A DNA stretch of 64,000 bases from positions 1,408,001 through 1,472,000 of the forward strand of contig OY969767.1 in assembly GCA_963702895.1 (NCBI GenBank), written 5' to 3'. The DNA comes from an uncultured Elusimicrobia bacterium (GTDB lineage Bacteria > Elusimicrobiota > Elusimicrobia > 2-01-FULL-59-12). The notes below the pieces were generated by a model. The model searched no databases and was not told where the DNA came from. It saw only the letters and a program-made list of their open reading frames with translations. Below, in pieces: positions 1,024 to 23,104 of the stretch. The position numbers and the translations under genes are program-made. Position 1 is the stretch's first letter; each line of letters opens with the position of its first letter.

Positions 1024-1182
1024 ATGCATAGGACCATCCGAAGATCCGCTGCCGTCCTTTTGATTGTCTGCTTGGTGGTCGATCCGGCAACGGCGGCCGC
1101 TTTTTCGAGCAGCCCCCCCCTCTTGCCGCGGCCGTTGGCCAAAAGGTGCCCTCCCATTCCGCGTTTGAAACCCAAGCCCTGA
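1024..1182 (+). CDS. Out-of-frame N-terminal signal-peptide fragment of the following giant gene
   Basis: ATG at 1024 is preceded by CAGGT. MHRTIRRSAAVLLIVCLVVDPATAAAF resembles the N-terminus of the 3506-aa protein (MPKSLIRIVALILVPCMLLDPSSAFA). One extra base in the C8 run at 1113-1120 fuses it to 1146..8426. Confidence 0.7.
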   Translation: MHRTIRRSAAVLLIVCLVVDPATAAAFSSSPPLLPRPLAKRCPPIPRLKPKP

Positions 1183-4100: not shown

Positions 4101-7100
4101 GATTGGTTCGCCGAAGCGATGGTCTCTCAGGCGGGCGGGCCGGCGATCGCGCTGGGCTTTCTCGCTTGTGCTTTGTTTCAGAGGCTATGGGCGCCGGCTG
4201 ATCGCGGGTACGGCTCGGGCGACACCAGCCCTACCACTACACCAGCCGAGAATGCCACTTCGCCTGCCCCGACCTTCCGGTCGGCCGGGGAATTGTTCGG
4301 AAGCACTGTTCTCGACAGGCACCCGGGTGCCGCGTTGGGTGATCCGGCGCCGGAAGCAACCCCCTCGCCAGGATACACCCGGCCTTTGGACCAAGCCACG
4401 TTGGATCGGGTGGCCGCTCTTTTGGAACGCCGGGGACTTGGTTTTCTGCGACGCGTTGTGGGCATCACCAGGGTCCAAGTGACGGAAAAGCACGCTGCTC
4501 TTTATCTGATTAGGTCCACCATCCAACACCTTCTATTCACGAAGTCGATTTTCCAGGAAATTATCGTTCCGGATTTCGAGACCAACAAGATGCTCACGAG
4601 GATCCTCGCCCGCCTCCATGAACTGTTCGACCCTGTGACTCTGCTCAACAGCTTGTCGCAAACGGATGTCTATCAGGACTTGCCCGAACCGATCCGCCAG
4701 CGCTTGGCGGAGGCGCGCAAGCAGTTACCGCCTTCAAGAACGATGTCGGAGTCGAATCAAGACACGCTCCGGCTCATCGTCACAATCGGACTCTTGCACG
4801 AGCTCGGCAGGGTCATCTGGGATTGGATGCGACAGCTGGGGGATGATCCGCCAGGCATTGACGAGGAGGAACTGGCTGCCGACAAGCTGAACGAGTGGAG
4901 ACGACTGGCAGACGCGGCGGACCCGGACCTCTTGTGGGTCCGCGCCGCACTCAACGCGTACGGGCCGGGCCGACGCGAAGATGGCAGCAACACTTTTCCC
5001 GCCCAGCTCTTTGCCGAAAAGTTCGCCGTGTGGGCGTATCCGCCATTGTCCCGTTACTTTGGCGTGAAGCTTTCCGAAAAAGAGACCCAATTCTTTGACG
5101 AGCTTGCCATTTTCCTTCAAGCCACGACGGCGCAGCCCGGCCCCATTGTGCCGGCCGGCGTGTCAGACTTCTCGGTTGACATATTCATCGCCGGCGTGGT
5201 GCTGGATTCCCCCGAGGGGGAGAAGGTCGCAGCGGCGAGCAAGGCGTATCATGCGGCCAAGGAGGTCGTGACGCGATTACAGAATCAACACCGTTCCAAA
5301 GGTCACTCACCTATTCACGGGGACAGAGACCTCGAGGAAAGGACTCTTGTCGCCCGTACCCGGGACATGCAAACACGAGAGCGTGAACTGCGCGAGGCTT
5401 TGGCCGCTGCCGCCCATTCGGAGCAACCGCATTACTTCAATGGCGTGCTGAACGCGCTGGTGAGGTTGTTTGTCGCCGGCCAATTGCCCGCGGACGACCA
5501 CACGTTCGAAGACTTTCTGCGGCAGAACCGGGAGGTCAAAGAGAGCCAGGATGCGTGGATCCAGGATCACCGGGACAGCGAAGAGGGCGTCTTCAGCCTT
5601 AAGACATTACGGTTCGTTGCGTGGAAAGCCGTTCATGCAGCTCTATTGACGAAACTGCATCGGGATAATGGAGAGGCCATGTGGCACGCCCTGCAAAGAG
5701 TCGAGCAAAGGCTTAAGGCGTTACCGAAAAAGGAACGAAGCGAGCTCATCAAAGACAAAGCATTCATTGAAGGTGTGAAGAGCTATGCCCGCAAGGCTGG
5801 CGCCGATGTGCACGCAGAGTGGAACAGTACCTCTCAGGAAGGCATCGCCGGCGTGGTCATAGGACCCTCCCAGACCAACCGATCAGCTGTCGCGAGGAGC
5901 GACGCGGCCCCCGCCGCTGGCGATACGGCAGGCGATGAGAAGGTCAGCATCTCTCTGGATGGGGCCGCCACCCTAAGGACCCGCTCTAGCGCGCTCGCCA
6001 TTCAAGATCTGTTGCACCCTGCCATTCCCATCCGTGTGATGAACGACGAAGCGGGACGGCTGGTCTCCGGTCGAACACAACTCTGGACGGTCTGGGACAC
6101 TCCATTGGATAAGTTTGAGACCGATCTCGACTTTCATATTTTGACGTATCTCAAGACTCTTTTGGAACGTTATCCGGGCCGCCGGATCACGGTCGTGGAT
6201 TGGGGGTGCGGATCGGGGAAGGCGATCAGCGAACTTGCCCGCCTAGCCAAAGAGTTGAGCCCCAACCTCCGACTCATCGGTTATTCGGACCAGATTTACC
6301 GTGATTGGAATGAGGCTCCGGAGAATGTCACTTTCATTCTGGACACAGCAGACCAGCTGCCTGGTTATTTCAATGATGGAGACATTGACCTCGTCGTCAG
6401 TCATCACGGATTCTCCAAGCTCGGGGCGGACTATATTGGGCACCTGCGCCAGATGCACGGCCGAATGGCACCCCATGGAATCATTCGCCATCACAATGCG
6501 GGCTGGAGCATCAGAATCCATCAGGCACTTCCCGAGTACAGCATCCGATACTTTCCCTCGAAATGGCGGCGTCATGTGATTGAATTTGCCCCACTCCTGG
6601 TTCATTTAGACCCCGCACTCGCGTTGGACCAAGAGGCCCGGAGAGGAGAAAAGCACGCTTCTCCTACCCCAAAGGCAAATGAGACTCAGACTCAGCCCGC
6701 GCCCTTTCTTCTGCAGGCGATTGAACACCATCAGCCAGACGACACGTTTCCCCTTATCCATCTTCGCTCCAGCAAGACGAAGGAACCTTTCCAAATACGA
6801 CTTCGGCAATGGAATCCTTTGGATTTTAGTATTGAAGCTTCGGGCCGCCCCATCGGGGAGCTCAGGCTGAAACGGCTGTCCAATGCATTGGAGCTCAGCA
6901 GGATTCAACTGTATGAAAGATATGAACGCCGCGGTATTTCGGACGCCGTCATCCAGTGGCTTTCCGGTCAATTGGATGAGCGGCACCCCGCGCTCGAGCT
7001 CTCCACCCGCAAAGCGAATGTGCGGTCCAGTCTCGTGCGCCATTTCAGCGACGTGCAAATACGAACCCACGCGGGATACGTGCCCTTATCAGATCTTACA

Positions 7101-8426
7101 GGCCGGCTCCAGTTCGGCTTCAAGCGCCTTCGACGCTTCCGCGCCATGCAGCCAAAACAGCCAATTGACGAACCATCGGTTGCCACGCCGACATCCGACA
7201 TCAGCCTCAAGACCACCAGCATTTTTGTCGCAGGGATCCTGCAGGCCCCCCTGTGGGGGTATGGTCTGAGCCATATTCTTAGCGGGACTCCGGGTCTTTC
7301 CATGGGACACCTGCTCATTGGCGCAGGGTGGTCTTCGCTTCCCATCGCGACAGCTCTTTTTCTGACTGGCGGCTTTCTGGCGGCCGTGATTCCACTATCC
7401 CCTCCGAATCCTGCGGACAAGGTCCGCCTGTTGGGCTCTCAAGGGAAATGGCCGGGGGATGCGCTCCTTGAGGAGCTGGTCCGACTCGTGCAAAAAAAGC
7501 CGTCTATGAAGCAGCAAGATATTCAGTGGAGGGGTTACCGGATCACCGAGATCCTTTGGCAAATTCTCGATCAGCACCTGGGTTTTGACGGCCACACCAT
7601 TATCTACCCGGCCGGCGGGGCTGATGGATTGCCATCACGCTTTGCGGACACGATTGTGCTCAATCGCGACAGACTGGAGAATCAAGCACGCGAGACTTTC
7701 AGTCTGCCCAAGCCTGGGACACACCGTCTCACCTATCTCACGCTGGACGCGGCCAGTCCTGCCAATTACAACCAAGTCCGCTCCGACATCAAAACCCCGC
7801 AAACAACGTTACTGCTCAAGGGTCTCGAATGGATGCTCCCAACATCGAAGTTCTTTGTTCGGCGTTTGCGCGCGATTTGTAATGTCTTGCAACCGAATCG
7901 GGTGATCATCCTGCGCCGTGAGGATGCCGCTGCCGTGGTGCCTGTTCTTGCCGGCCTGGGCTATCGAGAGCGGACGGATTGGATTGATCGGACGCGCAAG
8001 AGAGTTCTTGAAGCGATCTTTAACTATATGTCCATATCGGTGCTGGATGAGGTTCAAACGCCATCCGGCCCCACGTTCATGATCCCCAATACAATCAGAC
8101 TGTTTGAAAGGAATAAGGGTCAACAGACCATGGCCGATCGAACGCCGCGGCATCGGGCCAATCGAAAGACAATCGCGCTTTTGGCCGCGGCGACACTCGA
8201 CGGCGGGCTCTTGGCCTGGGGCTGGGGCCACGTTCTTGACGGAGCGCAAATGCCGCTCGTCACCCAGGCCGCGTTCCTGGCGATGCCTACGTTCTCGTTG
8301 AGCACCGCCGCAGCGCTCTTCCTGGCCGGCGGCGCGCTTGTGTCGATCATAACGAAACAGACTCGTATATCGAGAGAATTTAACCGCCCATCTCGCACAC
8401 CCAGCCCGTTTCGCCAAGCCGCTTAA
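1146..8426 (+). CDS. Giant multidomain membrane protein A (sigma70-r4-like HTH, GHKL-like, kinase-like, zincin-like, SAM-methyltransferase, GNAT domains separated by TM hairpins); true start probably 1024
   Basis: 2426-aa ORF. Motifs: LAELPYRHKLILTERF..G.S (HTH); NHLLKNA and GTGHGL (GHKL); VAIKVL and IGIDAGDA (kinase-like); HELGR and LFAEKF; VVDWGCGSG (SAM); ERYERRGIS (GNAT). Four hydrophobic hairpins lie at about 3105-3267, 3981-4190, 7212-7393 and 8166-8351. Confidence 0.85.
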   Translation: MPSHSAFETQALTLVLAASIFFGAALHSPGHPPVAKTVAMLPAEDRTRSLGARRKRRPRGPRSADDVARARPQRVRSTAADFVRQQAAAGRLAELPYRHKLILTERFIKGTSTKRFAVLHDMTVTAVISATRTALLELRRLVKPAAVEPAGSGDNGRAAPAPSVTHAADAGNAAGTSLPAISQDQQSILVIYPNLKLLRIMHPPVKSALDDNGQDSLSQLTVPQDPELLDKLGIDPTELHIVIAGSTVDVLKIPSSDWWVSHDPQVEQVKFLWILVRSLTNEKGLVVISPWSDITDARTQLQALKKAYSLTGRIERSPQNDYPTRDKDVIVRRRVRVLAVGPDSDAPSETAFQLLRVNTNPKLKEKADLDWKVIQTLQTFQGDRLSELWDVLKAQKIQCDLDSLRASLKRITTLTNAAPNEIQRSREFDRGPKRQRTRLPAQKPLIFKSDLSEEALAAYTEKVPVFERQITYQEFVTQNYDPDRRLEEITRQLPGWNSPDRVSIPILVNHLLKNAFFPFPDRSNDRQAHVSMEISMLEPSDPEEPRVVNIRIRQPSSTQADWNRLEVNHRGWVNHDLFYFARPELRGDEGALRPAGPSNPAGTGHGLLLVARVLAETPALLKFTRSSDPPYSLQTDLYIALRDRGTPRPNVSAGRLAIWLPFLLVAAAAAQIVLGHFLPEAGQPALPVLQAGFSSILGLGALLTAAFQPRYAPEGGGSGSGDSAPASGVAATDVVSKLQIYGVPVETDSRGTYVSPSQMPQAPWVMDRMRDPEQGALYPIHDIPSLTLSFPLHELPALSRDSLSINSSGVFLGFVNELDHPVAIKVLNRDQGDTELMNAQILGRIGGNPAFYGVIRLSDGGLAYAMQAVRCLPLAESLDSQDKQYLAERELLKKRAMTLAGISLIAFRRTPEGHAIGIDAGDAGVVDAITYGRYIAERTAAAPKRNVWMPILIAVSAAAHMALEHLQSSILGFGLLNGPIDMAGLDWFAEAMVSQAGGPAIALGFLACALFQRLWAPADRGYGSGDTSPTTTPAENATSPAPTFRSAGELFGSTVLDRHPGAALGDPAPEATPSPGYTRPLDQATLDRVAALLERRGLGFLRRVVGITRVQVTEKHAALYLIRSTIQHLLFTKSIFQEIIVPDFETNKMLTRILARLHELFDPVTLLNSLSQTDVYQDLPEPIRQRLAEARKQLPPSRTMSESNQDTLRLIVTIGLLHELGRVIWDWMRQLGDDPPGIDEEELAADKLNEWRRLADAADPDLLWVRAALNAYGPGRREDGSNTFPAQLFAEKFAVWAYPPLSRYFGVKLSEKETQFFDELAIFLQATTAQPGPIVPAGVSDFSVDIFIAGVVLDSPEGEKVAAASKAYHAAKEVVTRLQNQHRSKGHSPIHGDRDLEERTLVARTRDMQTRERELREALAAAAHSEQPHYFNGVLNALVRLFVAGQLPADDHTFEDFLRQNREVKESQDAWIQDHRDSEEGVFSLKTLRFVAWKAVHAALLTKLHRDNGEAMWHALQRVEQRLKALPKKERSELIKDKAFIEGVKSYARKAGADVHAEWNSTSQEGIAGVVIGPSQTNRSAVARSDAAPAAGDTAGDEKVSISLDGAATLRTRSSALAIQDLLHPAIPIRVMNDEAGRLVSGRTQLWTVWDTPLDKFETDLDFHILTYLKTLLERYPGRRITVVDWGCGSGKAISELARLAKELSPNLRLIGYSDQIYRDWNEAPENVTFILDTADQLPGYFNDGDIDLVVSHHGFSKLGADYIGHLRQMHGRMAPHGIIRHHNAGWSIRIHQALPEYSIRYFPSKWRRHVIEFAPLLVHLDPALALDQEARRGEKHASPTPKANETQTQPAPFLLQAIEHHQPDDTFPLIHLRSSKTKEPFQIRLRQWNPLDFSIEASGRPIGELRLKRLSNALELSRIQLYERYERRGISDAVIQWLSGQLDERHPALELSTRKANVRSSLVRHFSDVQIRTHAGYVPLSDLTGRLQFGFKRLRRFRAMQPKQPIDEPSVATPTSDISLKTTSIFVAGILQAPLWGYGLSHILSGTPGLSMGHLLIGAGWSSLPIATALFLTGGFLAAVIPLSPPNPADKVRLLGSQGKWPGDALLEELVRLVQKKPSMKQQDIQWRGYRITEILWQILDQHLGFDGHTIIYPAGGADGLPSRFADTIVLNRDRLENQARETFSLPKPGTHRLTYLTLDAASPANYNQVRSDIKTPQTTLLLKGLEWMLPTSKFFVRRLRAICNVLQPNRVIILRREDAAAVVPVLAGLGYRERTDWIDRTRKRVLEAIFNYMSISVLDEVQTPSGPTFMIPNTIRLFERNKGQQTMADRTPRHRANRKTIALLAAATLDGGLLAWGWGHVLDGAQMPLVTQAAFLAMPTFSLSTAAALFLAGGALVSIITKQTRISREFNRPSRTPSPFRQAA

Positions 8427-8526: not shown

Positions 8527-8742
8527 ATGTTTGATCGAATCACGTTTGACGCAAACATTATGGGCGGACGAGCCTGCATTCGCGGAATGCGGATTCCTGT
8601 TTCGGTGATCGTCGGGCAGGTGGCGCATGGAGCGACAGCCCGAGAAATCCTGAAAGGCTATCCTGACCTCAAAGAAGAAGACATCAAGCAGGCCATGGAA
8701 TATGCCGCCTGGCTGACTCAGGAAGAAGTGCACACGGCCTGA
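8527..8742 (+). CDS. DUF433-family antitoxin (VapB45-like)
   Basis: RITFDANIMGGRACIRGMRIPVSVIV...EILKGYPDL..EDI..A..YA is the DUF433 pattern. It has a strong RBS and is paired with a PIN-like gene. Confidence 0.9.
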   Translation: MFDRITFDANIMGGRACIRGMRIPVSVIVGQVAHGATAREILKGYPDLKEEDIKQAMEYAAWLTQEEVHTA

Positions 8743-8751
8743 GGACGAACC

Positions 8752-9111
8752 ATGCGGTTTCTGGCTGATATGTGCGTCTCCCTGGAAGTCGTCGAGTGGC
8801 TCCGACAGCAACAGCATGACACCAAGCATCTCCGAGAGGAAAACCTTCACAGGCTGCCGAATGGAGACATCTTCAAGAAGGCGGCCGCAGAAAATAGGAT
8901 CCTCCTCACCTTTGATTTGGACTTCGGAGAAATCGTAGCGCTGGCGAAAGGAAACCAAACGGGCGTTATTTTGTTCAGGCTCTACGACACGCGGCCCGTG
9001 CATGTGATCGAACGCCTAAAGGTCCTCCTAGCTGATGCTCCTCCCGCCCTCAACAACAGCATCATTACTGTTGAAGAAACCCGCTACCGAATCCGCCATT
9101 TCCCCACTTGA
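8752..9111 (+). CDS. DUF5615-family PIN-like toxin (VapC45/Mut7-C-like RNase)
   Basis: MRFLADMCVS...A..ENRILLTFDLDFGE...GVILFR is the typical DUF5615 pattern, directly after DUF433. Confidence 0.88.
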   Translation: MRFLADMCVSLEVVEWLRQQQHDTKHLREENLHRLPNGDIFKKAAAENRILLTFDLDFGEIVALAKGNQTGVILFRLYDTRPVHVIERLKVLLADAPPALNNSIITVEETRYRIRHFPT

Positions 9112-9355: not shown

Positions 9356-12300
9356 ATGCCCAAATCGCTGATCCGCATCGTCGCGCTGATACTCGTCCCG
9401 TGCATGCTCCTGGATCCGAGCTCCGCGTTCGCGGAGCTCGCCCGCCCCGCTGCGTGGCGGGCGCCATTCCCTGCAGGCGTTTCCCTTGCATCCCCACAGG
9501 CGACTCATGCCGCATTACGACTGGACTCTTTTCCGTTCGGTATCCAAGCCCTGGTTCCACCCAGCTGGCTGAGCCGTCCGATATCCTGGATCCAAAGAGC
9601 GAGTGAGCTGGCCCGCCAAGCAAGCAGGAATCGGTTCCAGGTGCGATGGACGTCTCTAGCAGGATCTCCATTCAGTTTCCCTGTTCTGGGTACGGACGAG
9701 CGACCCATTCGCCCGGTTCAATTCAGCGTATCCCAGAATGAGATCGGCGGCGGGCAGGACGGTACGGGCCAGATCGTAACGACACCAAGCGGCTCTCGCT
9801 TCCAGGTGTTCGACACCCCGCAAACCATGGCCGCCGCCCAGGCCGGTGAAATCGCGGAAATCATCCATGCCAATGATGCCGCCGGCCGGATCACCATCCT
9901 GATCCTGCCAACGGGCTCGACGCCAATCCCTGTCTACCACGAACTGGTCCGCCTGTACCAGGCGCGGCAGCTTTCCTTCCGAAACGTTCATACGTTTAAC
10001 ATGGATGAATACTACCCCGGACCGCAGGCTCCCTGCGCTTGGGCTCAGCACCCACAAAGCTACCGCCGATTTATGGATGAGCTCTTATTCTCAAAAGTGG
10101 ACATCCCTCGGGCAAATATTCATTTTCTTAACGGCCAGGCCGCCGACCCGGCAGCAGAGGCCGCTCGCTATGAACAGGAGTTTCGGGATCTCGCTCCAAA
10201 CGGCGCCGACCTGGAGTTGGGTGGTGTGGGAAGCCGGGGGCATGTGGCCTTCAACGAAGCGGTGGTTCACCTAACGGATGACTTTCTCCAGCGCCTCACG
10301 AGCAAGAATCGGGAAGCGCTAGGTCTGTCCAATGATTTCGCCTTAGAAGTAACGGCCGGCCACGAACTTGCTGCTTTGGCGATGATTCTACAAGGTCACT
10401 GGAATTTCCGGGAAGGCGAGACTTTCGTCCGCTGGCTTCGAGCAAGGATCAAGACGACGGGTCGCATCACGGAGGAAAGCCTCCAGAAATTGGCGGAAAG
10501 GCTTCGCCGCCAGCGCGTCACCATTGGCTGGAATCCCGATTCCCCTGATGCCAAGGACATCCAGGATTTCGTCAATCAAGCCAGTGCAAGATTCGGCTTT
10601 CCGATTGAACTGGCCGACCTCAGAAAACTTGATGATTCCCAGACACACCTACGGGAACTGGCTTTATCCACCGTGGTCGACAATTCCGTTCACTTCGCTG
10701 AGCCCGCCGACATTCCCACCCAGGCTCTCACGATGGGCCTGGGAACGCTGAGGCATTCGCAGCGGACCCGCATTCTCGCTTCGACACCCAACAAAATCCC
10801 GCCGCTGGAACAGGTTGCCGCCGGCCCTGTGTCTGAGCAAGTCCCTGTCACCGATGTCCTGCGCCATCCCGACACCCGGTTCCTGGTGACCCAGGCGGCC
10901 ATCCCGCCCACGGTGCGCACTGCCCTTGCAAGAACATCGGGTTTGGTATTGAACTCCCAACCCGAAACTCGAAACCCGAAAGCCGAATCCGGGACCCCTG
11001 CAGCGCGCGACACCAAGCTTTACACTCATCCCATCGCTGTTATGGCTCTCGCCTGGATGGCAAGTTCCCACTTTTATAGCTGGGACCCGGCCGGGACAGG
11101 CCTCCTTCTACTTCTGACAATCGCACCTTTAATGGCTTGGCAAGGAAGGATCTTCCGCGGCAAATCCGGCATGAATACGTTCCGGAGACTCGATGCATTG
11201 CTGAGGCATTTGAGGGGTCTTAGTTATGCTCGCTGTCGTGAACTCTTAGCAACCGGTCTCGACCGGTTCGTGCCGCCGCGCCGGAAACATAGACAGCGGG
11301 AGTTCCCGGCAATCGCCCTCCCCGCCGCCGCGCCAGGAAATCCGTTCCAATTGCGCCCCCCCACCGCCGTAGAGCTGGCGTTCCCCAGTCGGTATGAGAG
11401 CGCCGTTCACGCTAAGTTTGTGGGGAACGACCCCTACGATGATCGAACCAGAGCCATAGTCCAGGCCCACGCCACCGCGGCGTATGTGGACTTGATGAGA
11501 GAAATTTTCAAACGGACAGGCGGGACCTTGCGCGGAGTTTCGTTTCTTGAACTGGGCGCCGGGCTCGGTGCCATAGTGGACGTTCTGCGAACAAGAGCGG
11601 GTGTCGATGCTCAAGGCATCGAGGTCCGCCGGGAGTTTGTTCAATTCGCTAGGGATCATGGGGTGCCGCTTATTCAAGGGACACTGCTGGAAGTGCCCCT
11701 TGAACTGGCGGGAAAAACGTTCCAGATCACCTTTTCCAGGCAACTGCTGGATGCTATAGAGACGACTGATCGGGCCACCGAGGGCCCCATGCCCTCCCAA
11801 GTGACCCATGAAGAAGAACTCCGCGTCTTGGCCACGATCGCGGCGCTGACCGCCCCCGGAGGATGGAGCATCCATCAAACATATAGCTCCAACCCTATTC
11901 CCTTTACTGATGAAGAACTGACGCAGGCCGGGTTTCAGATTGTGTCGATGAACCCAAGGCGAACGATGATGGTGCTTCGCCGGTTGTCCGATCCGCCGCC
12001 TTCGAGCCCGGTACGGAGGCCTGAGGCCGCAGAAGAAACAATTAAACCTGAAGGAAAGAAGGGCCCCAGCCTTTACACTCATCCCATCGCTCTTATGGCT
12101 CTCGCCTGGATGGCAAGTTCCCACTTTTATGGCTGGGACCCGGCCGGGATTTTGCCGCTGCTCCTCTTGCTTGTGCCGCTGATGGCCTGGGGTCCGGGTC
12201 GTTATCGGCAATGGATGACCTCCCTTTCCGGGAGAGGGCCAAGATACAAGGCGAAGCAATGGGAACGGAAATTGGATGAAGATCTGAGGCGCCTGAGAGG

Positions 12301-15300
12301 AAAGGGAAGTAAAGCCGGAACCTTGCCATTTGAACTTTATCCCGGTGCCGATGCAGGGGCTCGGAAGCCTGCATCCCCTCGCCCGGCCCGGCCGGCCACC
12401 CAGCTGCCCGAAGCGGTCCCGGTCTCTGACCCCTCGGTGTCGCTCGACCTCGCCCCGGCTGCCGCGGTTTCCCTGGCACCGGCTGCCGCGACCGCCGTCT
12501 CGCCGCCTAGCCCTATCGCCGATTCGCCGCCTCCATCCACCGATGGCTCGCCGACCCGCCGGCCCGCCGACCCGCCGACTCGCCGCGTCGCCGCATTGGA
12601 CGTCGACCCCGCCGCGCCGGCGACAAGCCCGTTCCGGCCGTGGCGGTGGATCGCCGCCGGCATCGCAGTCGCCGCGGTCGTTGCCGCCCTGCATTTCGGC
12701 CCGACAACGTTCAGACAATTCCGGGACGGGTCTTCAACGCCGCGCCCGTCGTCGTCCGCGAGTCAGGACTACGTCTATGAGCCCGGGCCGGCGTCCGAAA
12801 CCACACACGACCGCGTCCGTACCATGATGGGACCGTACTACGGCATGGATCTTCAGGGACATCGGGCGGAATCCGGAGAACCCCGGGCCGATGCGGGAGC
12901 TCCCTCGCAGCCCCCCGCGCTGAACCCATTGGAGAACATTGCAGACATACAGCTGAGCGGTCATGCCGCGAATGAAATGCTGATGATGGCATTCGCGAAC
13001 ACGATGGAAGACGGCGGCGTTTTATCCCACGCGGGACGAATTGACTTCGTGCCCTCGGATAAACTCACGAAAGAACGCACCAAAGTCACGCTGATTTTGC
13101 CCGCATTGCGCCAGGGCCAGGCGATGCGCATGCCCATTCCCCTCAACCGCCGGGTCGATCCCCTGAGCATCTCGGACCCACGCCTCTGGGTTGACGCCCA
13201 GGGCTGGCTCACGGCCCGGGAGGATACCCCCCCGCTCACCGTGACCTTTGATTGGATCACGACCTTGGAAAACGGCTCCTTCCGGGCGAACTTCCCCGTG
13301 ACACCCTGGATGGAGCGGGAATTCCAAGATATTCCGCCGGAGGTTCGAAGGGACCTTGACCGCGCTCTAGGGCTCGATGAACATGGACGCGCGAGCGTCC
13401 TGGCCGGCGTGGTTGAGAAATACCTCGGCTACAACCAGCAACAGAGAGTTCAACTTCGTCGGGGGACGTGGAATCGTTTCATTGGAGAAGTTCTTGAGAC
13501 GGAAGGGCGGTTTAAGGGCGATTGCGACGTCTTGGCCACCGTCGGTTGGATCTGGGCCAGGTATCTTGGACTTGATGCTGTCATGGCAGCCGGCCGGAAC
13601 AACAGGGGCGGGGGCTCACGGTCCGGAACGAACATGTCCCACGCCGTCATGGTCATCCGGATCGGCGGCAAGTGGCTCGAATTCGACCCTTCCAAATGGG
13701 CGCCGCCCGTCGCCAGTGAAAGTCTTGCGCCTGACCAGCCCTCCGCCGACGGGAAACGGCTGGATGCCGGTCCCATGCCGACACCGCTCAAGCCCTCACC
13801 CCAGTTTGTCGCTACCTTTATCCCGAACCCCGAGCTTTTCCCGCCACCTCGAACGGGACCACCCGCCAGTGCAAAGCCTACCGCGGAGCGACCCGTTCCG
13901 CCCGGCGTGGGTCAGGAATCACCGAAGACCGAACCCGGCGCCAAAGTGGGGCCTGCCGAGAAGCCCGCGAGCGCCAAGAAACCCGCGAGCACCGAAACCC
14001 CCGCCAAGCGGCCCAGCACCTACCGCGTTCAGCCCGGCCAGAGTTTCAACGATATCGCGCGCTTGATATTCACGGATGAGAAATATCCCTACCCGGCGGC
14101 CTTGGATCTGATCGTGGACAACATCAACCACACGATCGGCGGCGACCCCGACCGCCTGATGGCAGGAGTCGACCTCATCGTACGGCCTACGAGCGCGTAT
14201 TCTAGTCCTGTAGCAGGGATGGATTGGGAATGGGGCCTCCATCGAAAATATGGACGGGCCTGGTATGAGCGGCGCCATGCCTTGCTGCAGCAGGCGCTGA
14301 CCCGGGAAAGTCAACGCCCGTCACCCTATACTTCGGAATACCAATCGGAACTGCGGGCGCGCGCGGGCGCCCGGTGGCGCTCGATCGAATTCGACATCCT
14401 TGCCATCAACGACATCCTGAATTGGATCGAACAACGCTTCGGGGTCAGATTCCAACGAGTTGACCTTATGCAGGCGATGGCTCAAACCATGGAGCGCAGT
14501 CAAATCATCTTGAAGCTGACGTCAACCGGCCGTTCAAAATCCGGAACGACCGCCGCCCCGAAGCAGACGGCCGACGGGGAATCGGCGAAACGGAGAAGCG
14601 GTGAACCGGCGGACTTGCCTCTGGGCCATTCCACGAAAACAAGTCCGGACGACCGACTCATCGCTCCGAAGAGCATCACTCCCCTCATGGCAGGCCTGCT
14701 CCAGGCTCCGCTGTGGTGGTGGGGGCTGAGCCACCTGCTGGGCGGGCCGCAGACACCGCTCCTGACCCAGGCCGCCTTCCTGGCCCTTCCGGCCATCCCG
14801 CTCGGCGCCGCCCTGGCCCTGTTCGCGGCGGGGGTCGTGGTGGCGGGGATGGCGGTTTTGGGGAGAAAGGTTCTGAAGCAAACCAGACCCGAGCGCATTG
14901 AAATACAACTGACCCCAATGGACAGACCCTATCAATTGGATCTCGTCAAGTCAGGTGGCAGCCATTCCCGGGGAGATTTGATTCGTCTCGATTTGGAGGA
15001 AATGCGGCTCGAAGCGCACAAGACCGGCGTACCCGGCCGTATGGCTGTTCGTCGAGTCTACCTCGAAGAGCTTGGACACGCTGTTGACGCGCGCCGCTTC
15101 GTCAGAGAAGGGCGGCCTCTTAGCGGCTTTGTAAGACCCAACTCACCTTTACAGACGTATTGGGACCACCACAATCCCAAAGACCCTGAGCATGACATGA
15201 AGGAGCTAGTGGCGGGTCTCAGGCACATCCTGTTTGCGCAAACCCCCTTTGAGGCGGAAAGAGCCCTCATAAAATTATCGCAGGTAGCCAATGATCCGAC

Positions 15301-18300
15301 CGACAGCCACTATTGGGGCGGACGCTTCGCCCTTGAGAGGATTCTCCAACGCATCGACGCAGGGCGAGGCGAGAGGGTGGATGATCTGACAAACTATTTG
15401 CCACGCCTCATCTATGGGTCAGGGGCGTTCCCGGACCTGCCTACGCTGCGTTTACTGGCGAAAGAATTATGTATCGAAAACCTGCGGGACTATCCGCCTG
15501 ACGGAGACGGTCTCCCTGCGCTGAGCGCGGATGGGTCCCGGATCGACGTTCCGGATGAGACCCAACAAGCTTTGGCAACGGTGTGGCGCGCATTCGAGAC
15601 TTACACGGGAAAATCATTGGCCGATGACGCGGTCCCCACGCCGGAACATGTCCGACATTCACAAGCGGCGAGGAGCGGGCTGCCTGGGTTTGACCGAACG
15701 GGCCATTCTATTCATGACCCTGGTCTTGCGCAAGGGAGAAAGATGGTTGGTATGGTCATCGCCGGCCTGCTCCAGGCTCCGCTGTGGTGGTGGGGGCTGA
15801 GCCACCTGCTGGGCGGGCCGCAGACACCGCTCCTGACCCAGGCCGCGTTCCTGACGATGCCGGCCATCCCGCTCGGCGACGCCCTGATCAGCTTCGCCGT
15901 GGGCGCGGCGTGGATCGTGGTGGCGGGGATGGCGGTTTTCGGGTCAGGGGCGCCCGCTCCGGGGCAGGAAGGGGTTTCCGGTCCTGTCTCGCCGGGACCG
16001 TCTTCCAATACCGCGGCCGCCGTCCGGAGGTCCTTCGAAGCGCAGGCTCGAGTACTGGCCGGTATCCCCACCGTGACCGAATTTGAAGCTAATTTCCCAG
16101 GCACGATACGTCGCGTCGATCTTGGACCAGGCTATTCGAATTCGTTACGAGCCGGAGAAGTTCCTAAGATCGATTTCACGCGTCGAATACAGGGAAGAGT
16201 CTACCAGCCACCACCGGCGTCGGAAAACGATTGGCCGAAATGGCTGGACCTGTACGTCGAAAAAGACGCCCAGGCGCTTGTCGTGAGGCTGATGAGAGCG
16301 GGCTTTCGCCCCGATTATTCCAACGCTTACGGAGATGGCCTGAAAGGAGTGTGGTGGACCCGAACCAGCCACCATACTGACACCGTCGGTTCCAACGCAA
16401 CAAATACGTTCTTTACTCCATTGACAGAGGAGGATTATCTCGCGCCGGACCAAGGCGAACATCCGGGCGAGACTCCTAACGACCCAGGAGCGCCTGTTAC
16501 ACCAACAGAACCTCCCTTGAATTGGATCGAAAAGAATGACGCAGCCCTCGAGCAACTGAGTCCCATCGACCGTCAGCTTGTCGATGCCATTCTCCAAGGC
16601 GCCTTACACGGCGATGCTGAACTGCTTGCCCAGTACCCAGAAAAAGTTTATATCGATCCTATTGAAGTTGGACGCTCGGATGAAGGCCGAACAATCTTTC
16701 TCAAGCTTGAAACGAGCATCCTAGTAGAAGGCCGCTACCTCACACACCTGCGATTCAAAGGCGCTCGCCCCCATAAAGGGCGCTACGGGCAGGGGAACCA
16801 AGTCGCCTATCTCGGACGTCGGGGCCATGTCGAGCGGCCTGTAACGGTCGATCAGGAAGGGCGATTGACGGTTTTTGCCGGTCAACTTGACCCCATGGGA
16901 GGTATGCGCCGTATCGGGGCTGCCAACGAATACGCTTTGATGCAAAGCGAAAACAGCCAAGGCGCCTATCGCACGGACGTGCCGATCGGCTGGGGCATCT
17001 TCCCTGGATTTGCATTTGAAAACGAACCTCTGGGCTGGGCGATCGCAGGGATGGAAGGGCCCGACGTTCGAATAAACGGGCGTCGTCAGAATCAGCTGAT
17101 CCTCCGGTCGCGCACGAACGACCCTTATGGGATGATTGAACTGTCTCAGGAACAGTCGCAACACCTCGCCAGGCTCATCGGTGAGAGCATCTGCGCTTAT
17201 CATCAAAAAGGCCGTTATCACCGCTACCCCCATTTTGGAAATATCGGCGTGGCCTACGATACTGTCACCCGTTCCATCCGTTCTGTTGTTCTGCGGGATT
17301 TGGAGACCTCCGTCCGGAAAGACAGCCTGAGCGGATCTCCGAAAGAAATTGAGAACCAAATCATTGCTTGGCGTTTCCGGGATGTGATTCGGTTGATCTA
17401 TCAGTTCTCCTTCAGACCACGGCCCAATGACCCGCTCATCGGCGCCCTCTTGCGCGGATACTTCCCGGAAGGGACTCTAAGAAATGATGATCTTCAGGCC
17501 CTGCTTGTGACCATTTGCCGTCCCAACTTTCTCGATGATTACGCATCCTTATTCTACGACGATGAGACGCAAGATCTCTCGAATTTGATCGACACTCTCG
17601 ACATCCAATCTCATCCTAATTATCAGCATCTTTGGAACGCGATCAGACAATCCATGGCGAGCCAGCCCGCCACTCCTGAAGGGAATGACGGTTCGGCGAC
17701 TCAAGAACATCCGGGTCGCATTGATCCGACGGGCTTGCGCCGCGTGCTCCCGGCAATCGCCCTCCTGGCCGCTCTTCCCTGGACCTACGGCTTCACTTCG
17801 ATCAGCGGCTCTCCCGGATCCGGCGCCGCGATCCCGCTCGGCGCCGCCCTGGCCCTGTTCGCGGCGGGGATCGCGGTCCTGATCTCAGGGAATTCCCCTC
17901 GAAAACGCAAAATACTAACTAAGGCGGCGAGCCATAAGGCAGGAAGGCAAAAGCCGGTGAGTGGCGATGCACCGGGTCCTTCGCGTCACGTTTACCCTGA
18001 CCCCGTCGTCATGGAGAAAAGTCGTTACGATCTTCCAAAGAGTTTGAAGTCCTGGTCTTGGCTCGCTCGCAACAAGGACCAACGTCAATGGCTGCGGGAC
18101 GTATTCCTGCCGAGACTCTTGGCGACTCAAAACCTCCGCGCTCCAGGACAAATCAAGGTCGTAGACCTTGGCGTAAGCACCGGAGAAGTCCTCGCCCGAA
18201 CTTACTATGAGATTTTCCAGCATCTCATAGAAAACACCTTGAAGGGAACATGGAAGGCCAGGATGGTAGGTGTTGATAGGGATGCGACCGTGCTGGCGGA

Positions 18301-19876
18301 AGCCCGTCTTCGGATAAGCGGCAAGCACCCTTTCAATGATATCTCGATCTCTGGCCCTACCATTGAAAAACCAACCCCCTACTCGGCGGCCGTGGTGGAT
18401 TTCTTAAACAGCGACCCGGCGGCCTTTCAATCCAGCGTGCAGCTGGAGCAGCTCGACATCACCGACCATGATTCGCTGGACCCCGTTTTAGACGGTGTCG
18501 ACCTGATCATGGTCAACCACGTCATGGAATATTTGCACCCGGCGGACGTAAAGCCCTTCTTGCAACACCTGTACCAGAAGGCCCCGCAAGCCTGGTTGGC
18601 CATGGAAAATGAATACAGTACTCCCGCCGAAGCTCACCACCGCCAATGGATACCTTATCAGCCGACGCATTTGCCGGGCTTTCGCCCAACGGATTCAGGA
18701 AGCAGCTCACTTCCCGGCGAGAACACACCCCGGTCAGCGGCTGTGGTCGGCATCTTCGCCAGCTGGCTCGCGCTCAGTCAGGCCGCATCCTCCGCTCACC
18801 TCCCCAGTAGGTTGGAATCCCTGCTTTCATTCTTCTATTCGATATCGCCGCTCTTTCCCTGGCTCATGCTCGCCGCGACAGCGGTCTGGCTGGCGGGCAC
18901 CTTTGTCGCGCTGAGAACTCTTTGGAGGCACCCCTCTCGGGTGCCGAGCATAAGACAGGGCGGTACGGCTTCGCCCAGCCCGGCCAGAGCGCTCACTTTT
19001 CGGTACTATTCCGAACTGACCCCCGGACAAAAAGCTGATGTAACGCTAGCTTCATTAATCAGAAGGTTAGGAGCAAGACGTGAGGTGCACGTCTACGATA
19101 CGAAACCATTGGGCAGCCGGTGGGGCCAATTGCCGATCCTCACCCGGTGGAGCCTGCGCCGTTTCACGCGTAACCTGACCCCTGATCCGACAACACTCAG
19201 ACTCGATGCTCTCGTCGCCTATCGTGGAGACATTCCCATGGGTGTTTACGCGTTCATCGATCTCGGTCCAGATCGTCAAATTGTTATGGACAACGGCATC
19301 TACATGGACGCCGACCAGAGGCAGAACGGATACGGTGGAAAACTCACGAAGGAACTCCTCAGCAGGCTGGCAGAGCGCGGGTACAGAATGTTCGTTTTGG
19401 GACCGCCTTTGGGAACGGCTGAAGCGGAGGGGCTCCGTCGGTGGCTGAGCGCTGCCCCAGGCGTTGAAACGCGGGGCAGAACAACCATCGTCCATCTCGC
19501 TAACTACCGAACAAACACCGCCAATTCCCAAGCCGCCGGCAAACCCAAAGGCAAAACAAACGATTCCGCCCCGGAAGCGGAGCCCGCTGACGCGCCGCGC
19601 GGCATAAAGCTTCGCAGTTCCGCGCTGGCCGGCGCTCTCGCCAGCGCGATCGCGCTCAGCCAGGCGCCGTTTGCCCCCCAACTGCCGGATTGGCTTTCTC
19701 CCCTCTTCAGCACGGCGAGTTCGCTGGCGCCGCTCGTTCCCTGGGTGGGGATGGCCGCCGTGATCGGTTGGCTTTTACGGCCAGCTCTGACTCGCATGCT
19801 GTTGAAGGCCCTTCCCCGCCTGCGCGGCAGTCGTTCATCCCGAGCCATCCATCATCACCTTCGAGCCGCGGCCTGA
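9356..19876 (+). CDS. Giant multidomain membrane protein B (NagB-like, SAM-MTase, transglutaminase-like, LysM, zincin-like, kinase-like, CheR-like MTase, GNAT; repeated TM hairpins)
   Basis: 3506-aa ORF with a signal-peptide-like start. Motifs: LPTGSTP, TFNMDEY, GHVAFNE and ALTMG (NagB); FLELGAGLG; GDCDVLA..SHA..W.EFDPS; YRVQPGQSF.DIA (LysM); EELGH; HFGNI and LRDLE; DLGVSTGE..NHVMEYL (CheR-like); DQRQNGYG (GNAT). Confidence 0.9.
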   Translation: MPKSLIRIVALILVPCMLLDPSSAFAELARPAAWRAPFPAGVSLASPQATHAALRLDSFPFGIQALVPPSWLSRPISWIQRASELARQASRNRFQVRWTSLAGSPFSFPVLGTDERPIRPVQFSVSQNEIGGGQDGTGQIVTTPSGSRFQVFDTPQTMAAAQAGEIAEIIHANDAAGRITILILPTGSTPIPVYHELVRLYQARQLSFRNVHTFNMDEYYPGPQAPCAWAQHPQSYRRFMDELLFSKVDIPRANIHFLNGQAADPAAEAARYEQEFRDLAPNGADLELGGVGSRGHVAFNEAVVHLTDDFLQRLTSKNREALGLSNDFALEVTAGHELAALAMILQGHWNFREGETFVRWLRARIKTTGRITEESLQKLAERLRRQRVTIGWNPDSPDAKDIQDFVNQASARFGFPIELADLRKLDDSQTHLRELALSTVVDNSVHFAEPADIPTQALTMGLGTLRHSQRTRILASTPNKIPPLEQVAAGPVSEQVPVTDVLRHPDTRFLVTQAAIPPTVRTALARTSGLVLNSQPETRNPKAESGTPAARDTKLYTHPIAVMALAWMASSHFYSWDPAGTGLLLLLTIAPLMAWQGRIFRGKSGMNTFRRLDALLRHLRGLSYARCRELLATGLDRFVPPRRKHRQREFPAIALPAAAPGNPFQLRPPTAVELAFPSRYESAVHAKFVGNDPYDDRTRAIVQAHATAAYVDLMREIFKRTGGTLRGVSFLELGAGLGAIVDVLRTRAGVDAQGIEVRREFVQFARDHGVPLIQGTLLEVPLELAGKTFQITFSRQLLDAIETTDRATEGPMPSQVTHEEELRVLATIAALTAPGGWSIHQTYSSNPIPFTDEELTQAGFQIVSMNPRRTMMVLRRLSDPPPSSPVRRPEAAEETIKPEGKKGPSLYTHPIALMALAWMASSHFYGWDPAGILPLLLLLVPLMAWGPGRYRQWMTSLSGRGPRYKAKQWERKLDEDLRRLRGKGSKAGTLPFELYPGADAGARKPASPRPARPATQLPEAVPVSDPSVSLDLAPAAAVSLAPAAATAVSPPSPIADSPPPSTDGSPTRRPADPPTRRVAALDVDPAAPATSPFRPWRWIAAGIAVAAVVAALHFGPTTFRQFRDGSSTPRPSSSASQDYVYEPGPASETTHDRVRTMMGPYYGMDLQGHRAESGEPRADAGAPSQPPALNPLENIADIQLSGHAANEMLMMAFANTMEDGGVLSHAGRIDFVPSDKLTKERTKVTLILPALRQGQAMRMPIPLNRRVDPLSISDPRLWVDAQGWLTAREDTPPLTVTFDWITTLENGSFRANFPVTPWMEREFQDIPPEVRRDLDRALGLDEHGRASVLAGVVEKYLGYNQQQRVQLRRGTWNRFIGEVLETEGRFKGDCDVLATVGWIWARYLGLDAVMAAGRNNRGGGSRSGTNMSHAVMVIRIGGKWLEFDPSKWAPPVASESLAPDQPSADGKRLDAGPMPTPLKPSPQFVATFIPNPELFPPPRTGPPASAKPTAERPVPPGVGQESPKTEPGAKVGPAEKPASAKKPASTETPAKRPSTYRVQPGQSFNDIARLIFTDEKYPYPAALDLIVDNINHTIGGDPDRLMAGVDLIVRPTSAYSSPVAGMDWEWGLHRKYGRAWYERRHALLQQALTRESQRPSPYTSEYQSELRARAGARWRSIEFDILAINDILNWIEQRFGVRFQRVDLMQAMAQTMERSQIILKLTSTGRSKSGTTAAPKQTADGESAKRRSGEPADLPLGHSTKTSPDDRLIAPKSITPLMAGLLQAPLWWWGLSHLLGGPQTPLLTQAAFLALPAIPLGAALALFAAGVVVAGMAVLGRKVLKQTRPERIEIQLTPMDRPYQLDLVKSGGSHSRGDLIRLDLEEMRLEAHKTGVPGRMAVRRVYLEELGHAVDARRFVREGRPLSGFVRPNSPLQTYWDHHNPKDPEHDMKELVAGLRHILFAQTPFEAERALIKLSQVANDPTDSHYWGGRFALERILQRIDAGRGERVDDLTNYLPRLIYGSGAFPDLPTLRLLAKELCIENLRDYPPDGDGLPALSADGSRIDVPDETQQALATVWRAFETYTGKSLADDAVPTPEHVRHSQAARSGLPGFDRTGHSIHDPGLAQGRKMVGMVIAGLLQAPLWWWGLSHLLGGPQTPLLTQAAFLTMPAIPLGDALISFAVGAAWIVVAGMAVFGSGAPAPGQEGVSGPVSPGPSSNTAAAVRRSFEAQARVLAGIPTVTEFEANFPGTIRRVDLGPGYSNSLRAGEVPKIDFTRRIQGRVYQPPPASENDWPKWLDLYVEKDAQALVVRLMRAGFRPDYSNAYGDGLKGVWWTRTSHHTDTVGSNATNTFFTPLTEEDYLAPDQGEHPGETPNDPGAPVTPTEPPLNWIEKNDAALEQLSPIDRQLVDAILQGALHGDAELLAQYPEKVYIDPIEVGRSDEGRTIFLKLETSILVEGRYLTHLRFKGARPHKGRYGQGNQVAYLGRRGHVERPVTVDQEGRLTVFAGQLDPMGGMRRIGAANEYALMQSENSQGAYRTDVPIGWGIFPGFAFENEPLGWAIAGMEGPDVRINGRRQNQLILRSRTNDPYGMIELSQEQSQHLARLIGESICAYHQKGRYHRYPHFGNIGVAYDTVTRSIRSVVLRDLETSVRKDSLSGSPKEIENQIIAWRFRDVIRLIYQFSFRPRPNDPLIGALLRGYFPEGTLRNDDLQALLVTICRPNFLDDYASLFYDDETQDLSNLIDTLDIQSHPNYQHLWNAIRQSMASQPATPEGNDGSATQEHPGRIDPTGLRRVLPAIALLAALPWTYGFTSISGSPGSGAAIPLGAALALFAAGIAVLISGNSPRKRKILTKAASHKAGRQKPVSGDAPGPSRHVYPDPVVMEKSRYDLPKSLKSWSWLARNKDQRQWLRDVFLPRLLATQNLRAPGQIKVVDLGVSTGEVLARTYYEIFQHLIENTLKGTWKARMVGVDRDATVLAEARLRISGKHPFNDISISGPTIEKPTPYSAAVVDFLNSDPAAFQSSVQLEQLDITDHDSLDPVLDGVDLIMVNHVMEYLHPADVKPFLQHLYQKAPQAWLAMENEYSTPAEAHHRQWIPYQPTHLPGFRPTDSGSSSLPGENTPRSAAVVGIFASWLALSQAASSAHLPSRLESLLSFFYSISPLFPWLMLAATAVWLAGTFVALRTLWRHPSRVPSIRQGGTASPSPARALTFRYYSELTPGQKADVTLASLIRRLGARREVHVYDTKPLGSRWGQLPILTRWSLRRFTRNLTPDPTTLRLDALVAYRGDIPMGVYAFIDLGPDRQIVMDNGIYMDADQRQNGYGGKLTKELLSRLAERGYRMFVLGPPLGTAEAEGLRRWLSAAPGVETRGRTTIVHLANYRTNTANSQAAGKPKGKTNDSAPEAEPADAPRGIKLRSSALAGALASAIALSQAPFAPQLPDWLSPLFSTASSLAPLVPWVGMAAVIGWLLRPALTRMLLKALPRLRGSRSSRAIHHHLRAAA
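11018..11096 (+). repeat. Intragenic direct repeat R1 copy 1 (encodes LYTHPIA.MALAWMASSHFY.WDPAG hairpin)
   Basis: 79 bp with 2 mismatches versus 12071-12149. Confidence 0.95.
12071..12149 (+). repeat. Intragenic direct repeat R1 copy 2
   Basis: 79 bp with 2 mismatches versus 11018-11096. Confidence 0.95.
14693..14859 (+). repeat. Intragenic direct repeat R2 copy 1 (encodes GLLQAPLWWWGLSHLLGGPQTPLLTQAAFL... hairpin)
   Basis: 14693-14775 is identical to 15764-15846 (83 bp), and similarity continues to about 14859. 14795-14833 is identical to 17831-17869. Confidence 0.95.
15764..15939 (+). repeat. Intragenic direct repeat R2 copy 2
   Basis: Matches 14693-14859. 15836-15861 also matches 8262-8287 in giant gene A with 1 mismatch. 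Confidence 0.95.
17831..17869 (+). repeat. Partial R2 copy 3 (IPLGAALALFAAG)
   Basis: 39 bp identical to 14795-14833. Confidence 0.9.
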
Positions 19877-19907
19877 CCCGAGAGATTAGCCGGGAAACTG
19901 CAGTTGC

Positions 19908-20040
19908 CGTCACCCCGGCGGATTGTTAGCCGGCCCTCCACACATCCGGCGGGCCGTCCGCCCTGCCGTGTGGCGGACGGGGTCTATCACCGTCGTAAAC
20001 GGAATGATGGATCCCCCCCTTACGACCGGGGGGGATGACG
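19908..20040 (+). repeat. Palindromic repeat element (CGTCACCCCGGCG...ATGGAT...GATGACG family), copy 1; possible terminator of giant gene B
   Basis: Shares ends and internal stems with 21265-21339 and 27395-27502. Confidence 0.8.
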
Positions 20041-20080
20041 GTACAAAAAAGTCCCGACGTCTCAGTCAATAAAGAACGTT

Positions 20081-20292
20081 CAACAGAACTTTTCCGGTTA
20101 GGTAAGCTCCTCGAAGATTAGGCAGGCCCCCCCCAGAAAGATTAGGTAGGTTGTCCGAAAGATTAAGCAGGATGACGGAAAGAATGATACGGCTCCTCGA
20201 AGAATGAGACGCTTGCTCCGGAAAGAATGAGACGGTTGGCAGAAAGAATGAGACGGTTCCTGGGAAAAGACGAACCGGGAAAAGTTCTATTG
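20081..20292. repeat. Degenerate ~21-bp tandem array bounded by imperfect inverted repeats
   Basis: About 8 units such as GAAAGATTAGGTAGGTTGTCC and GAAAGAATGAGACGGTTGGCA, flanked by CAACAGAACTTTTCCGG (20081-20097) and CCGGGAAAAGTTCTATTG (20275-20292). Confidence 0.8.

Positions 20293-21361: not shown

Positions 21362-23104
<1,743 letters not shown>

Follow-up and report, generated by a model that had tools for sequence, protein, structure and literature searches.

Near-identical patches in the hairpin-coding DNA of a giant patchwork gene from an Elusimicrobia bacterium probably result from gene conversion

The giant open reading frame (ORF) P0001 lies in a 64,000-nt stretch of the genome of an uncultured Elusimicrobia bacterium (contig OY969767.1, positions 1,408,001 to 1,472,000; below, the window) and encodes a short leader, cargo domains that alternate with predicted membrane hairpins, and an Arg-rich tail closing in Ala-Ala-Ala (Table 1). 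The hairpin-coding segments, or connectors, are older duplicates of each other, and several contain short patches in which two copies are nearly or completely identical. Comparison of the copies indicates that these patches were probably made by ordinary homologous gene conversion between the duplicates. As a process, gene conversion among the repeated segments of modular genes is familiar; what sets the present case apart is mainly its setting and the protein family. No account of this family, or of conversion in such genes, turned up in a search of open-access main texts. The genome is a single contig of 2,724,539 bp with no N (labelled G000, contig C1); coordinates are those of the window unless contig C1 is named.

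The order of the parts in the N-terminal half of P0001 is leader, NagB-like domain, connector A1, methyltransferase, A2, Pro-rich linker, a single hydrophobic helix, and a transglutaminase-like region. The C-terminal half comprises B1, an unnamed domain, B2, a further unnamed domain, B3, a CheR-like methyltransferase, connector C1, a GNAT domain, C2, and the Arg-rich tail. Each connector is 40–65 residues long and comprises two helices, the first one hydrophobic, joined by a short loop. A previous reading made from the sequence only had claimed that the connectors are near-identical at the DNA level, and the pairs on which it relied were all recovered. Positions 11018–11096 and 12071–12149 match at 77 of 79 nt (offset 1053 bp; BLASTN against the genome, E 1e-30), 14693–14775 and 15764–15846 at 83 of 83 (1071 bp; E 5e-62), and 14795–14833 and 17831–17869 at 39 of 39 (3036 bp; E 4e-13). 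These three pairs are in frame, all three offsets being multiples of 3, and no further copy of the tracts was found in the 2.72-Mb genome (BLASTN of window 1–21000). As claimed, the domains enclosed by the A pair and by B1/B2 are unrelated to each other (best BLASTP E = 2.0). The near-identity, however, is confined to islands: the patches in the window measure 39–83 bp and sit in repeats no longer than 188 bp, and the homology extends past them into longer, far older paralogous hairpins; for A1/A2, it persists for about 18 codons beyond the patch in the codon alignment. A fourth match, 15836–15861 with 8262–8287 in the upstream ORF (25 of 26 nt), is true homology, but, comprising about eight GC-rich codons, it is a weak sign of recent exchange.

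Low synonymous divergence between the copies had been set as a check, and it was found inside the patches, where it is zero or near zero, but not outside. Among identical residues other than Met and Trp, synonymous differences between A1 and A2 occur at 0 of 20 positions inside the patch vs 9 of 9 outside (Fisher p 1e-7), between B1 and B3 at 0 of 13 vs 6 of 8 (p 5e-4), and between B1 and B2 at 0 of 24 vs 4 of 23 (p 0.05); for the 83-nt identical run of the latter pair, codon permutation gave p 1e-4. The inside/outside p-values are optimistic, as the limits of the patches were set by visual inspection of the very data being tested. In addition, connector B1 is a mosaic. It is identical to B2 over 14693–14775, then to B3 over 14795–14833, where it shows nine differences from B2, and again to B2 over 14837–14859.

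The same pattern is present in two other genes of this genome. The gene at contig C1:101783-106267 (minus strand) contains a tandem duplication of a 402-codon hairpin-plus-cargo unit that begins in the polar linker ahead of the hairpin. The copies share 283 identical nt over the hairpin, whereas the two cargo copies are only about 50% identical in protein and about 30% diverged in nucleotides, with neither a stop nor a frameshift. Synonymous differences number 0 of 88 inside the patch vs 28 of 141 outside (p 5e-7). For the cargo copies, the non-synonymous divergence (dN) is 0.40 and the synonymous divergence (dS) 0.38; the resulting dN/dS of about 1.0 hints at relaxed or diversifying selection on the cargo. 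This gene is the one case in which homologous cargo was also available for conversion, yet remained unconverted, and is the cleanest example, with a built-in control in that an identical spacer stands beside cargo at a dN/dS of about 1. In the gene at contig C1:788779-797835, a hairpin segment with a W-H-E-x-x-x-H motif in its hydrophobic part occurs twice at a spacing of 3.9 kb; the copies share a 126-nt patch (95% identity), with synonymous differences at 4 of 39 positions inside vs 21 of 34 outside (p 5e-6). A third copy of this 788-type hairpin, at 92–94%, lies in the tail of the adjacent gene for a 12,935-aa protein (749878-788685 of the contig). Exact repeats that measure 30 nt or more and are separated by 300 nt or more were sought in 1,188 ORFs (minimum length 300 aa). 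Patchwork genes contain five such repeats, in three genes, and all five fall on hydrophobic segments, which account for about 8% of the residues in these genes. Exact repeats of the same kind were also detected in several conventional repetitive surface proteins. That the hairpins serve as the exchange site needs no special explanation because they are the only homologous DNA within P0001.

Altogether, five pairs in three genes show a bounded tract of near-identity, synonymous sites included, within older paralogous sequence, and B1 in addition shows mosaic ancestry. Gene conversion is favored because synonymous sites differ outside but not inside the patches, and because B1 alternates between B2-like, B3-like, and again B2-like sequence. 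The genome encodes recA, and RecA-type repair would use a neighboring hairpin copy as the template, since the hairpins are usually the sole homologous DNA in an otherwise non-repetitive gene. An occasional in-frame crossover between hairpins would delete or duplicate a unit of 1053, 1071, or 3036 bp, so that exact in-frame deletions of these sizes are the predicted products. Gene conversion would allow gain and loss of domains, but does not itself move cargo. The polar linkers, which are of low complexity, are a likelier entry point than the hairpins for new, unrelated cargo, which would come in by illegitimate joining.

The connectors are also predicted to be neutral with respect to membrane topology. 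Under the positive-inside rule, Lys/Arg-rich flanks of membrane segments stay in the cytoplasm. In 60 predicted two-helix clusters from 78 family proteins (loop of at least six residues; clusters of one, three, or more segments left out), the fraction of Lys plus Arg was 0.17 and 0.18 in the flanks and 0.06 in the loop, and exceeded the loop value in the flanks of 51 of the 60. Since Lys and Arg lie on both outer flanks, both neighbors of a hairpin are predicted to be cytoplasmic; the hairpin would cross the membrane twice, every cargo would lie on the cytoplasmic side, and a cargo together with its hairpin would form a topology-neutral unit that could be gained or lost with no change in the orientation of the remaining protein. 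Clusters with a single hydrophobic segment outnumber every other class (105 of 194), in part because some first helices are too weak to pass the threshold. The AlphaFold model of B1 is a helix-loop-helix of low confidence (predicted local distance difference test, pLDDT, 65; predicted template modeling score, pTM, 0.32).

Relatives were drawn from 60 regions, a subset of all matches to the leader, most of them in ORFs with a minimum length of about 850 aa; the set comprises 71 ORFs from 11 other genomes, the assemblies of which consist of 20–410 contigs, and 11 leader-bearing ORFs ran off the end of a contig or region. Among 78 family proteins, none of the 11 pairs that share sequence reached a mutual coverage above 60%, and no two proteins had the same architecture. 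Five cargos of P0001 (NagB, methyltransferase, the ~400-aa domain, CheR-like, and GNAT) match other giant ORFs at different positions. By these sequence comparisons, cargo domains move between family members. Where these cargos have homologues in relatives, the adjoining hairpins are of other kinds or absent. Between the relatives P0005 and P0006, a membrane module of about 270 aa is present or absent, with limits in a polar linker (at the protein level only). The proposal that recombination acts in the hairpin DNA thus stands in part: it appears recent, given the patches with zero synonymous change and the mosaic B1, and its crossovers would be in frame and predicted topology-neutral. The accompanying claim that cargo units are gained and lost at the repeats does not, as both visible events, the P0005/P0006 indel and the duplication in the contig C1:101783 gene, break in polar linkers.

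Several observations weigh against gene conversion as the explanation. No near-identical hairpin repeats (at least 88% over at least 36 nt) were detected in the 71 ORFs from the 11 other genomes; hairpins shared within relatives are older (52% identical amino acids in G001, 37% in G008), and the near-identical tracts found there lie between paralogous leaders (G001, G006), apart from one tandem duplication. The fragmented assemblies, or a sporadic process, may account for the missing recent patches. At the locus itself, connectors C1/C2 and, in the upstream gene, a D pair and a B pair have no patch (50–54% identical, longest identical runs 10, 6, and 6, respectively), so that homogenization is episodic. 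Both differences within the A patch are non-synonymous. No orthologue or close strain was found in the genome, metagenome, or viral contigs searched, which leaves the direction and age of conversion unpolarized: the whole protein matched only itself among 2,251 candidates, and the A1-cargo-A2 region matched none of 7,997 shorter proteins. Finally, the topology is predicted from hydropathy windows and a low-confidence model rather than by a dedicated predictor.

We considered whether the hairpin DNA is instead a working exchange point at which cargo-plus-hairpin units are integrated in the Campbell manner, excised, or swapped, the patches being crossover footprints. Hairpins of the same type are neighbors of each other (A-A, B-B-B, C-C), each pair around an unrelated domain, every offset is in frame, and B-type and 788-type hairpins are each common to adjacent genes, all of which speaks for this reading. 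The four-fold-site GC of the cargos (0.59–0.72) is below that of five housekeeping genes (0.78–0.84) and of hairpins B and C (0.80–0.93), as might be the case for imported DNA; but hairpin A is low as well (0.54), and low cargo GC could reflect relaxed codon selection. The linker breakpoints and the unlike or absent hairpins around homologous cargos argue against this reading, as does the confinement of connector B to one locus: it was found in none of the 10 other family genomes, so that no matching donor pool was detected. In addition, the B2-B3-B2 mosaic requires a tract-limited, double-ended exchange. On balance, we regard the exchange point as unlikely. A one-off recent local duplication or insertion accident, with patches that are merely young and no repeated exchange, is improbable. 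Short in-frame tandem duplications are known in the family (24 codons at 98.7% at contig C1:450829; 42 codons at 88.6% in G008), but the patches lie in exact register within longer, synonymously diverged homology, which largely refutes this explanation; moreover, B1 shares patches with two different partners, and the diverged cargo copies of the contig C1:101783 gene stand beside 283 identical nt.

The absence of synonymous change across up to 88 codons would also result from selection on the DNA or RNA itself, if the patches were targets of a site-specific recombinase, RNA elements, or templates for a retroelement. The five patches, however, have nothing in common but GC-rich 7-mers, and their folds are no better than those of mononucleotide-shuffled sequences (z −1.2 to +0.3); the diverged cargo pair lacks an adenine bias, the reverse transcriptases of the genome are intron-like, and no recombinase is encoded near the locus; such selection is therefore very improbable. 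Least probable of all, and hardly credible, is the homogenization of the copies by assembly or polishing. The assembly does carry indel errors (a frameshift in a run of G breaks rpoD, ~21841–21980, in two), and no independent record extends across a whole repeat. Against this explanation, the genome is a single contig, the homopolymer errors suggest long reads, ample for 39–283 nt, the ORF is open over 3,506 codons, and the copies retain internal differences and distinct flanks. Furthermore, a short-read contig from run X1, possibly not an independent sample, equals 15642–15792, a stretch that takes in 29 nt of the B2 patch together with the unique sequence that precedes it. In a public run with the organism at low depth, 29 contigs matched, 14 of them at 99% or better; among the eight of these 29 that were listed, there were neither joints nor a piece spanning a repeat, which does not argue against the existence of deletion forms.

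The suggestion that the hairpin-coding DNA acts as an att-like site was not borne out. Apart from the GC-rich 7-mers, the patches share no motif that could serve as a common core or dyad, and no inverted repeats inside them were found among the 25 longest listed; their fold is not unusual, and connector B, as noted, is private to this locus. The genome encodes four tyrosine recombinases, the nearest about 90 kb from the gene, and one serine recombinase about 1 Mb away, so that no cognate enzyme resides at the locus. A diversity-generating retroelement does not fit, either, as the changes in the contig C1:101783 pair are spread over all four bases (0.27–0.38 per base). The reverse transcriptases belong to three dispersed, 94%-identical 1.9-kb elements of the group II intron type; two of the three have a family gene no more than about 3 kb away.

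Among known systems, a close likeness is to polyketide synthase modules and GRINS (2021, PMC8256042), with which the present case shares intragenic, non-reciprocal homogenization in a giant modular gene and DNA identity beyond protein conservation. There, the duplicated region is defined as > 500 bp at > 80% identity; here, the patches are 39–283 bp long and lie on spacers rather than on catalytic domains, with unrelated folds, not homologous modules, between them. The duplication in the contig C1:101783 gene reaches 80.7% over 1089 bp only if the cargo is averaged in. The GC skew of the patches is −0.16 to +0.09 (under 0.15 in four of five copies), outside the GRINS signature, and their TA skew of 0.26–0.51 is expected because of the hydrophobic codons.

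Elusimicrobiota are among the phyla with very large genes, the origin of which was left open by West-Roberts et al. (2023, bioRxiv 10.1101/2023.11.21.568195); the string "recombin" does not occur in the main text of that paper. The Archaeovorins of Omnitrophota described there have at least 30,000 aa, a SecA DEAD domain, and an N-terminal C39/S8 peptidase. Very long proteins with multiple transmembrane segments, divergent methyltransferase, GNAT, and sugar-metabolism domains are common to both. P0001 is ten times shorter, however, its leader is confined to one family, with 3–29 matches per genome that has it, and neither SecA DEAD nor C39/S8 was detected in Pfam and NCBIfam scans.

An analogy to C-terminal swapping in polymorphic toxins (Zhang et al., 2012, PMC3482391) had also been drawn. 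In both cases, the domain content varies among relatives and recombination is implicated; here, however, the variation is internal and concerns the whole protein, and the cargos are not recognized toxin domains. The analogy fails because there are no orphan cassettes (no further patch copies in the genome), no immunity genes among the neighbors, and no constant N-terminal body with a variable C-terminal tip, only the leader of about 60 aa being common. With polyvalent proteins (Iyer et al., 2017, PMC5512222), P0001 shares many unrelated domains per polypeptide and extreme architectural variety, but it has membrane hairpins, whereas "transmembrane" is absent from the main text of that paper. 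An origin in a phage, plasmid, or conjugative element is likewise not indicated: the locus is chromosomal, with housekeeping genes nearby (its neighbors are DUF433/DUF5615, hemerythrin, cupin, rpoD, and dnaG), and the B1-cargo-B2 region has no relative on viral contigs, plasmid collections not having been searched.

The leader, which has no match to a Pfam family, defines the protein family. It has 13 matches in G000; of the 10 other genomes that belong to the same taxonomic family, nine contain it, with 3–29 matches each. A search of 401 genomes from the phylum with a 61-sequence profile detected it nowhere outside this family. When only leader-bearing ORFs with a genuine stop codon are counted, 62 of 66 terminate in AA, SA, AS, or SS after an Arg-rich stretch, compared with 86 of 1,159 ORFs (7%) in the genome as a whole. 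The transfer-messenger RNA (tmRNA) tag of the genome ends in Leu-Ala-Ala and resembles these tails (in P0001, 19850–19876), which are possibly a built-in degron or export signal.

A bolder reading, which we consider doubtful, is that the topology-neutral hairpins are self-maintaining recombination hubs of a combinatorial membrane polyprotein, in which the first helix of each hairpin, being signal-peptide-like, may allow the chain to be cut into effectors that are anchored separately. If so, cytoplasm-facing enzyme domains could be added, dropped, and reassorted anywhere along the chain, within and between adjacent genes, with neither cassettes nor a recombinase, and the tmRNA-tag-like Ala-Ala tail may pass the chain on to an unfoldase, which would either turn it over or deliver it into a cell of a host or of prey. 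The spacer DNA demonstrably recombines, and the locus offers a concrete, testable handle on domain acquisition in the giant patchwork proteins of Omnitrophota, Elusimicrobiota, and similar uncultured lineages.

Table 1. Coordinates of P0001, its parts, and neighboring or related features (window positions unless contig C1 is given).
Feature	Position	Strand	Remarks
Giant patchwork ORF P0001	9356..19876	+	3,506 aa; single-member cluster in protein collection
Family leader	9356..9571	+	hydrophobic stretch to Asp-Pro, F-x-x-Q-A-L motif further downstream
NagB / glucosamine-6-phosphate deaminase-like cargo	9800..10900	+	Pfam PF01182 E 5.5e-17; TIGR00502 below cut-off
Connector A1	11018..11152	+	near-identical patch 11018-11096, older homology 11097-11152
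S-adenosylmethionine-dependent methyltransferase-like cargo, between A1 and A2	11273..11995	+	Pfam MetW / Methyltransf_23, weak
Connector A2	12071..12202	+	near-identical patch 12071-12149
Single hydrophobic segment ahead of transglutaminase-like cargo	12647-12703	+	
Transglutaminase-like cargo (weak)	13343..13705	+	PF01841 E 9e-4, below cut-off
Connector B1, mosaic	14669..14863	+	patches 14693-14775, 14795-14833, 14837-14859
Unnamed alpha/beta cargo, between B1 and B2	14888..15655	+	conserved E-E-x-G-H motif
Connector B2	15740..15943	+	patches 15764-15846 and 15917-15939 common with B1
Unnamed ~400-aa cargo	16487..17695	+	no Pfam match
Connector B3	17744..17884	+	patch 17831-17869 identical to B1; remainder old, diverged
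CheR-like methyltransferase cargo (weak)	17975..18649	+	PF01739 E 0.001
Connector C1	18737..18919	+	paralogue of C2 without recent patch
GNAT-like cargo (weak)	18992..19474	+	PF00583 E 0.0014
Connector C2	19613..19795	+	
Upstream paralogous patchwork ORF	1146..8426	+	2,426 aa
Two diverged B-type hairpins in upstream ORF	~7209-7424 and ~8166-8360	+	upstream ORF also has its own diverged hairpin pair
DUF433 + DUF5615 gene pair	8527..9111	+	between the two giant genes
Reverse transcriptase elements	contig C1:229818-231341, 463401-464924, 1962081-1963604		group II intron-like

With respect to the cargo labels, only NagB is clearly above its Pfam cut-off; MetW barely attains its threshold, and the remaining labels are weak. 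The NagB-like domain is split by an insertion. The best relatives of the methyltransferase between A1 and A2 are in other giant ORFs of genomes G015 and G025. The domain between B1 and B2 was modeled with a pLDDT of 73.5 (core 85–95) and has no match in the PDB at E ≤ 0.001 (Foldseek) or in Pfam; its seven homologues stand in other architectures, for example, C-terminal to a glycosyltransferase-like domain, and it is also present behind a different type of leader (P0004). For the B1-cargo-B2 region, the ESM Atlas gave matches only at 0.83 or lower, and these were not used. The ~400-aa domain, tentatively kinase-like by motifs seen by eye, has homologues in G005 (E 6e-33) and G002. The CheR-like domain has homologues in family genes of G001 and G009, and the GNAT-like domain has one in a family gene of G003. 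Connectors C1 and C2 share 23 of 59 amino acids and 54% of their nucleotides.

In the upstream paralogue, the leader (~1024–1146) is out of frame with the rest of the gene, the frame changing at a run of eight C; this is likely a long-read assembly error, although it may represent phase variation. Another family gene (contig C1 ~1604215-1608900, minus strand) carries one TGA in frame, which interrupts it, and seems to change frame once before that point. The DUF433/DUF5615 pair, which we take to be toxin-antitoxin-like, lies in an interval that a crossover between the B hairpins of the two giant genes would delete; DUF433 occurs in seven copies in the genome, and given these, no inference was drawn. 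Just 3' of P0001, a composite intergenic repeat (19875–20100) has more than 100 partial BLAST matches across the genome, and it is followed by a degenerate tandem array of about 21 bp (20098–20270) with copies at a few other loci.

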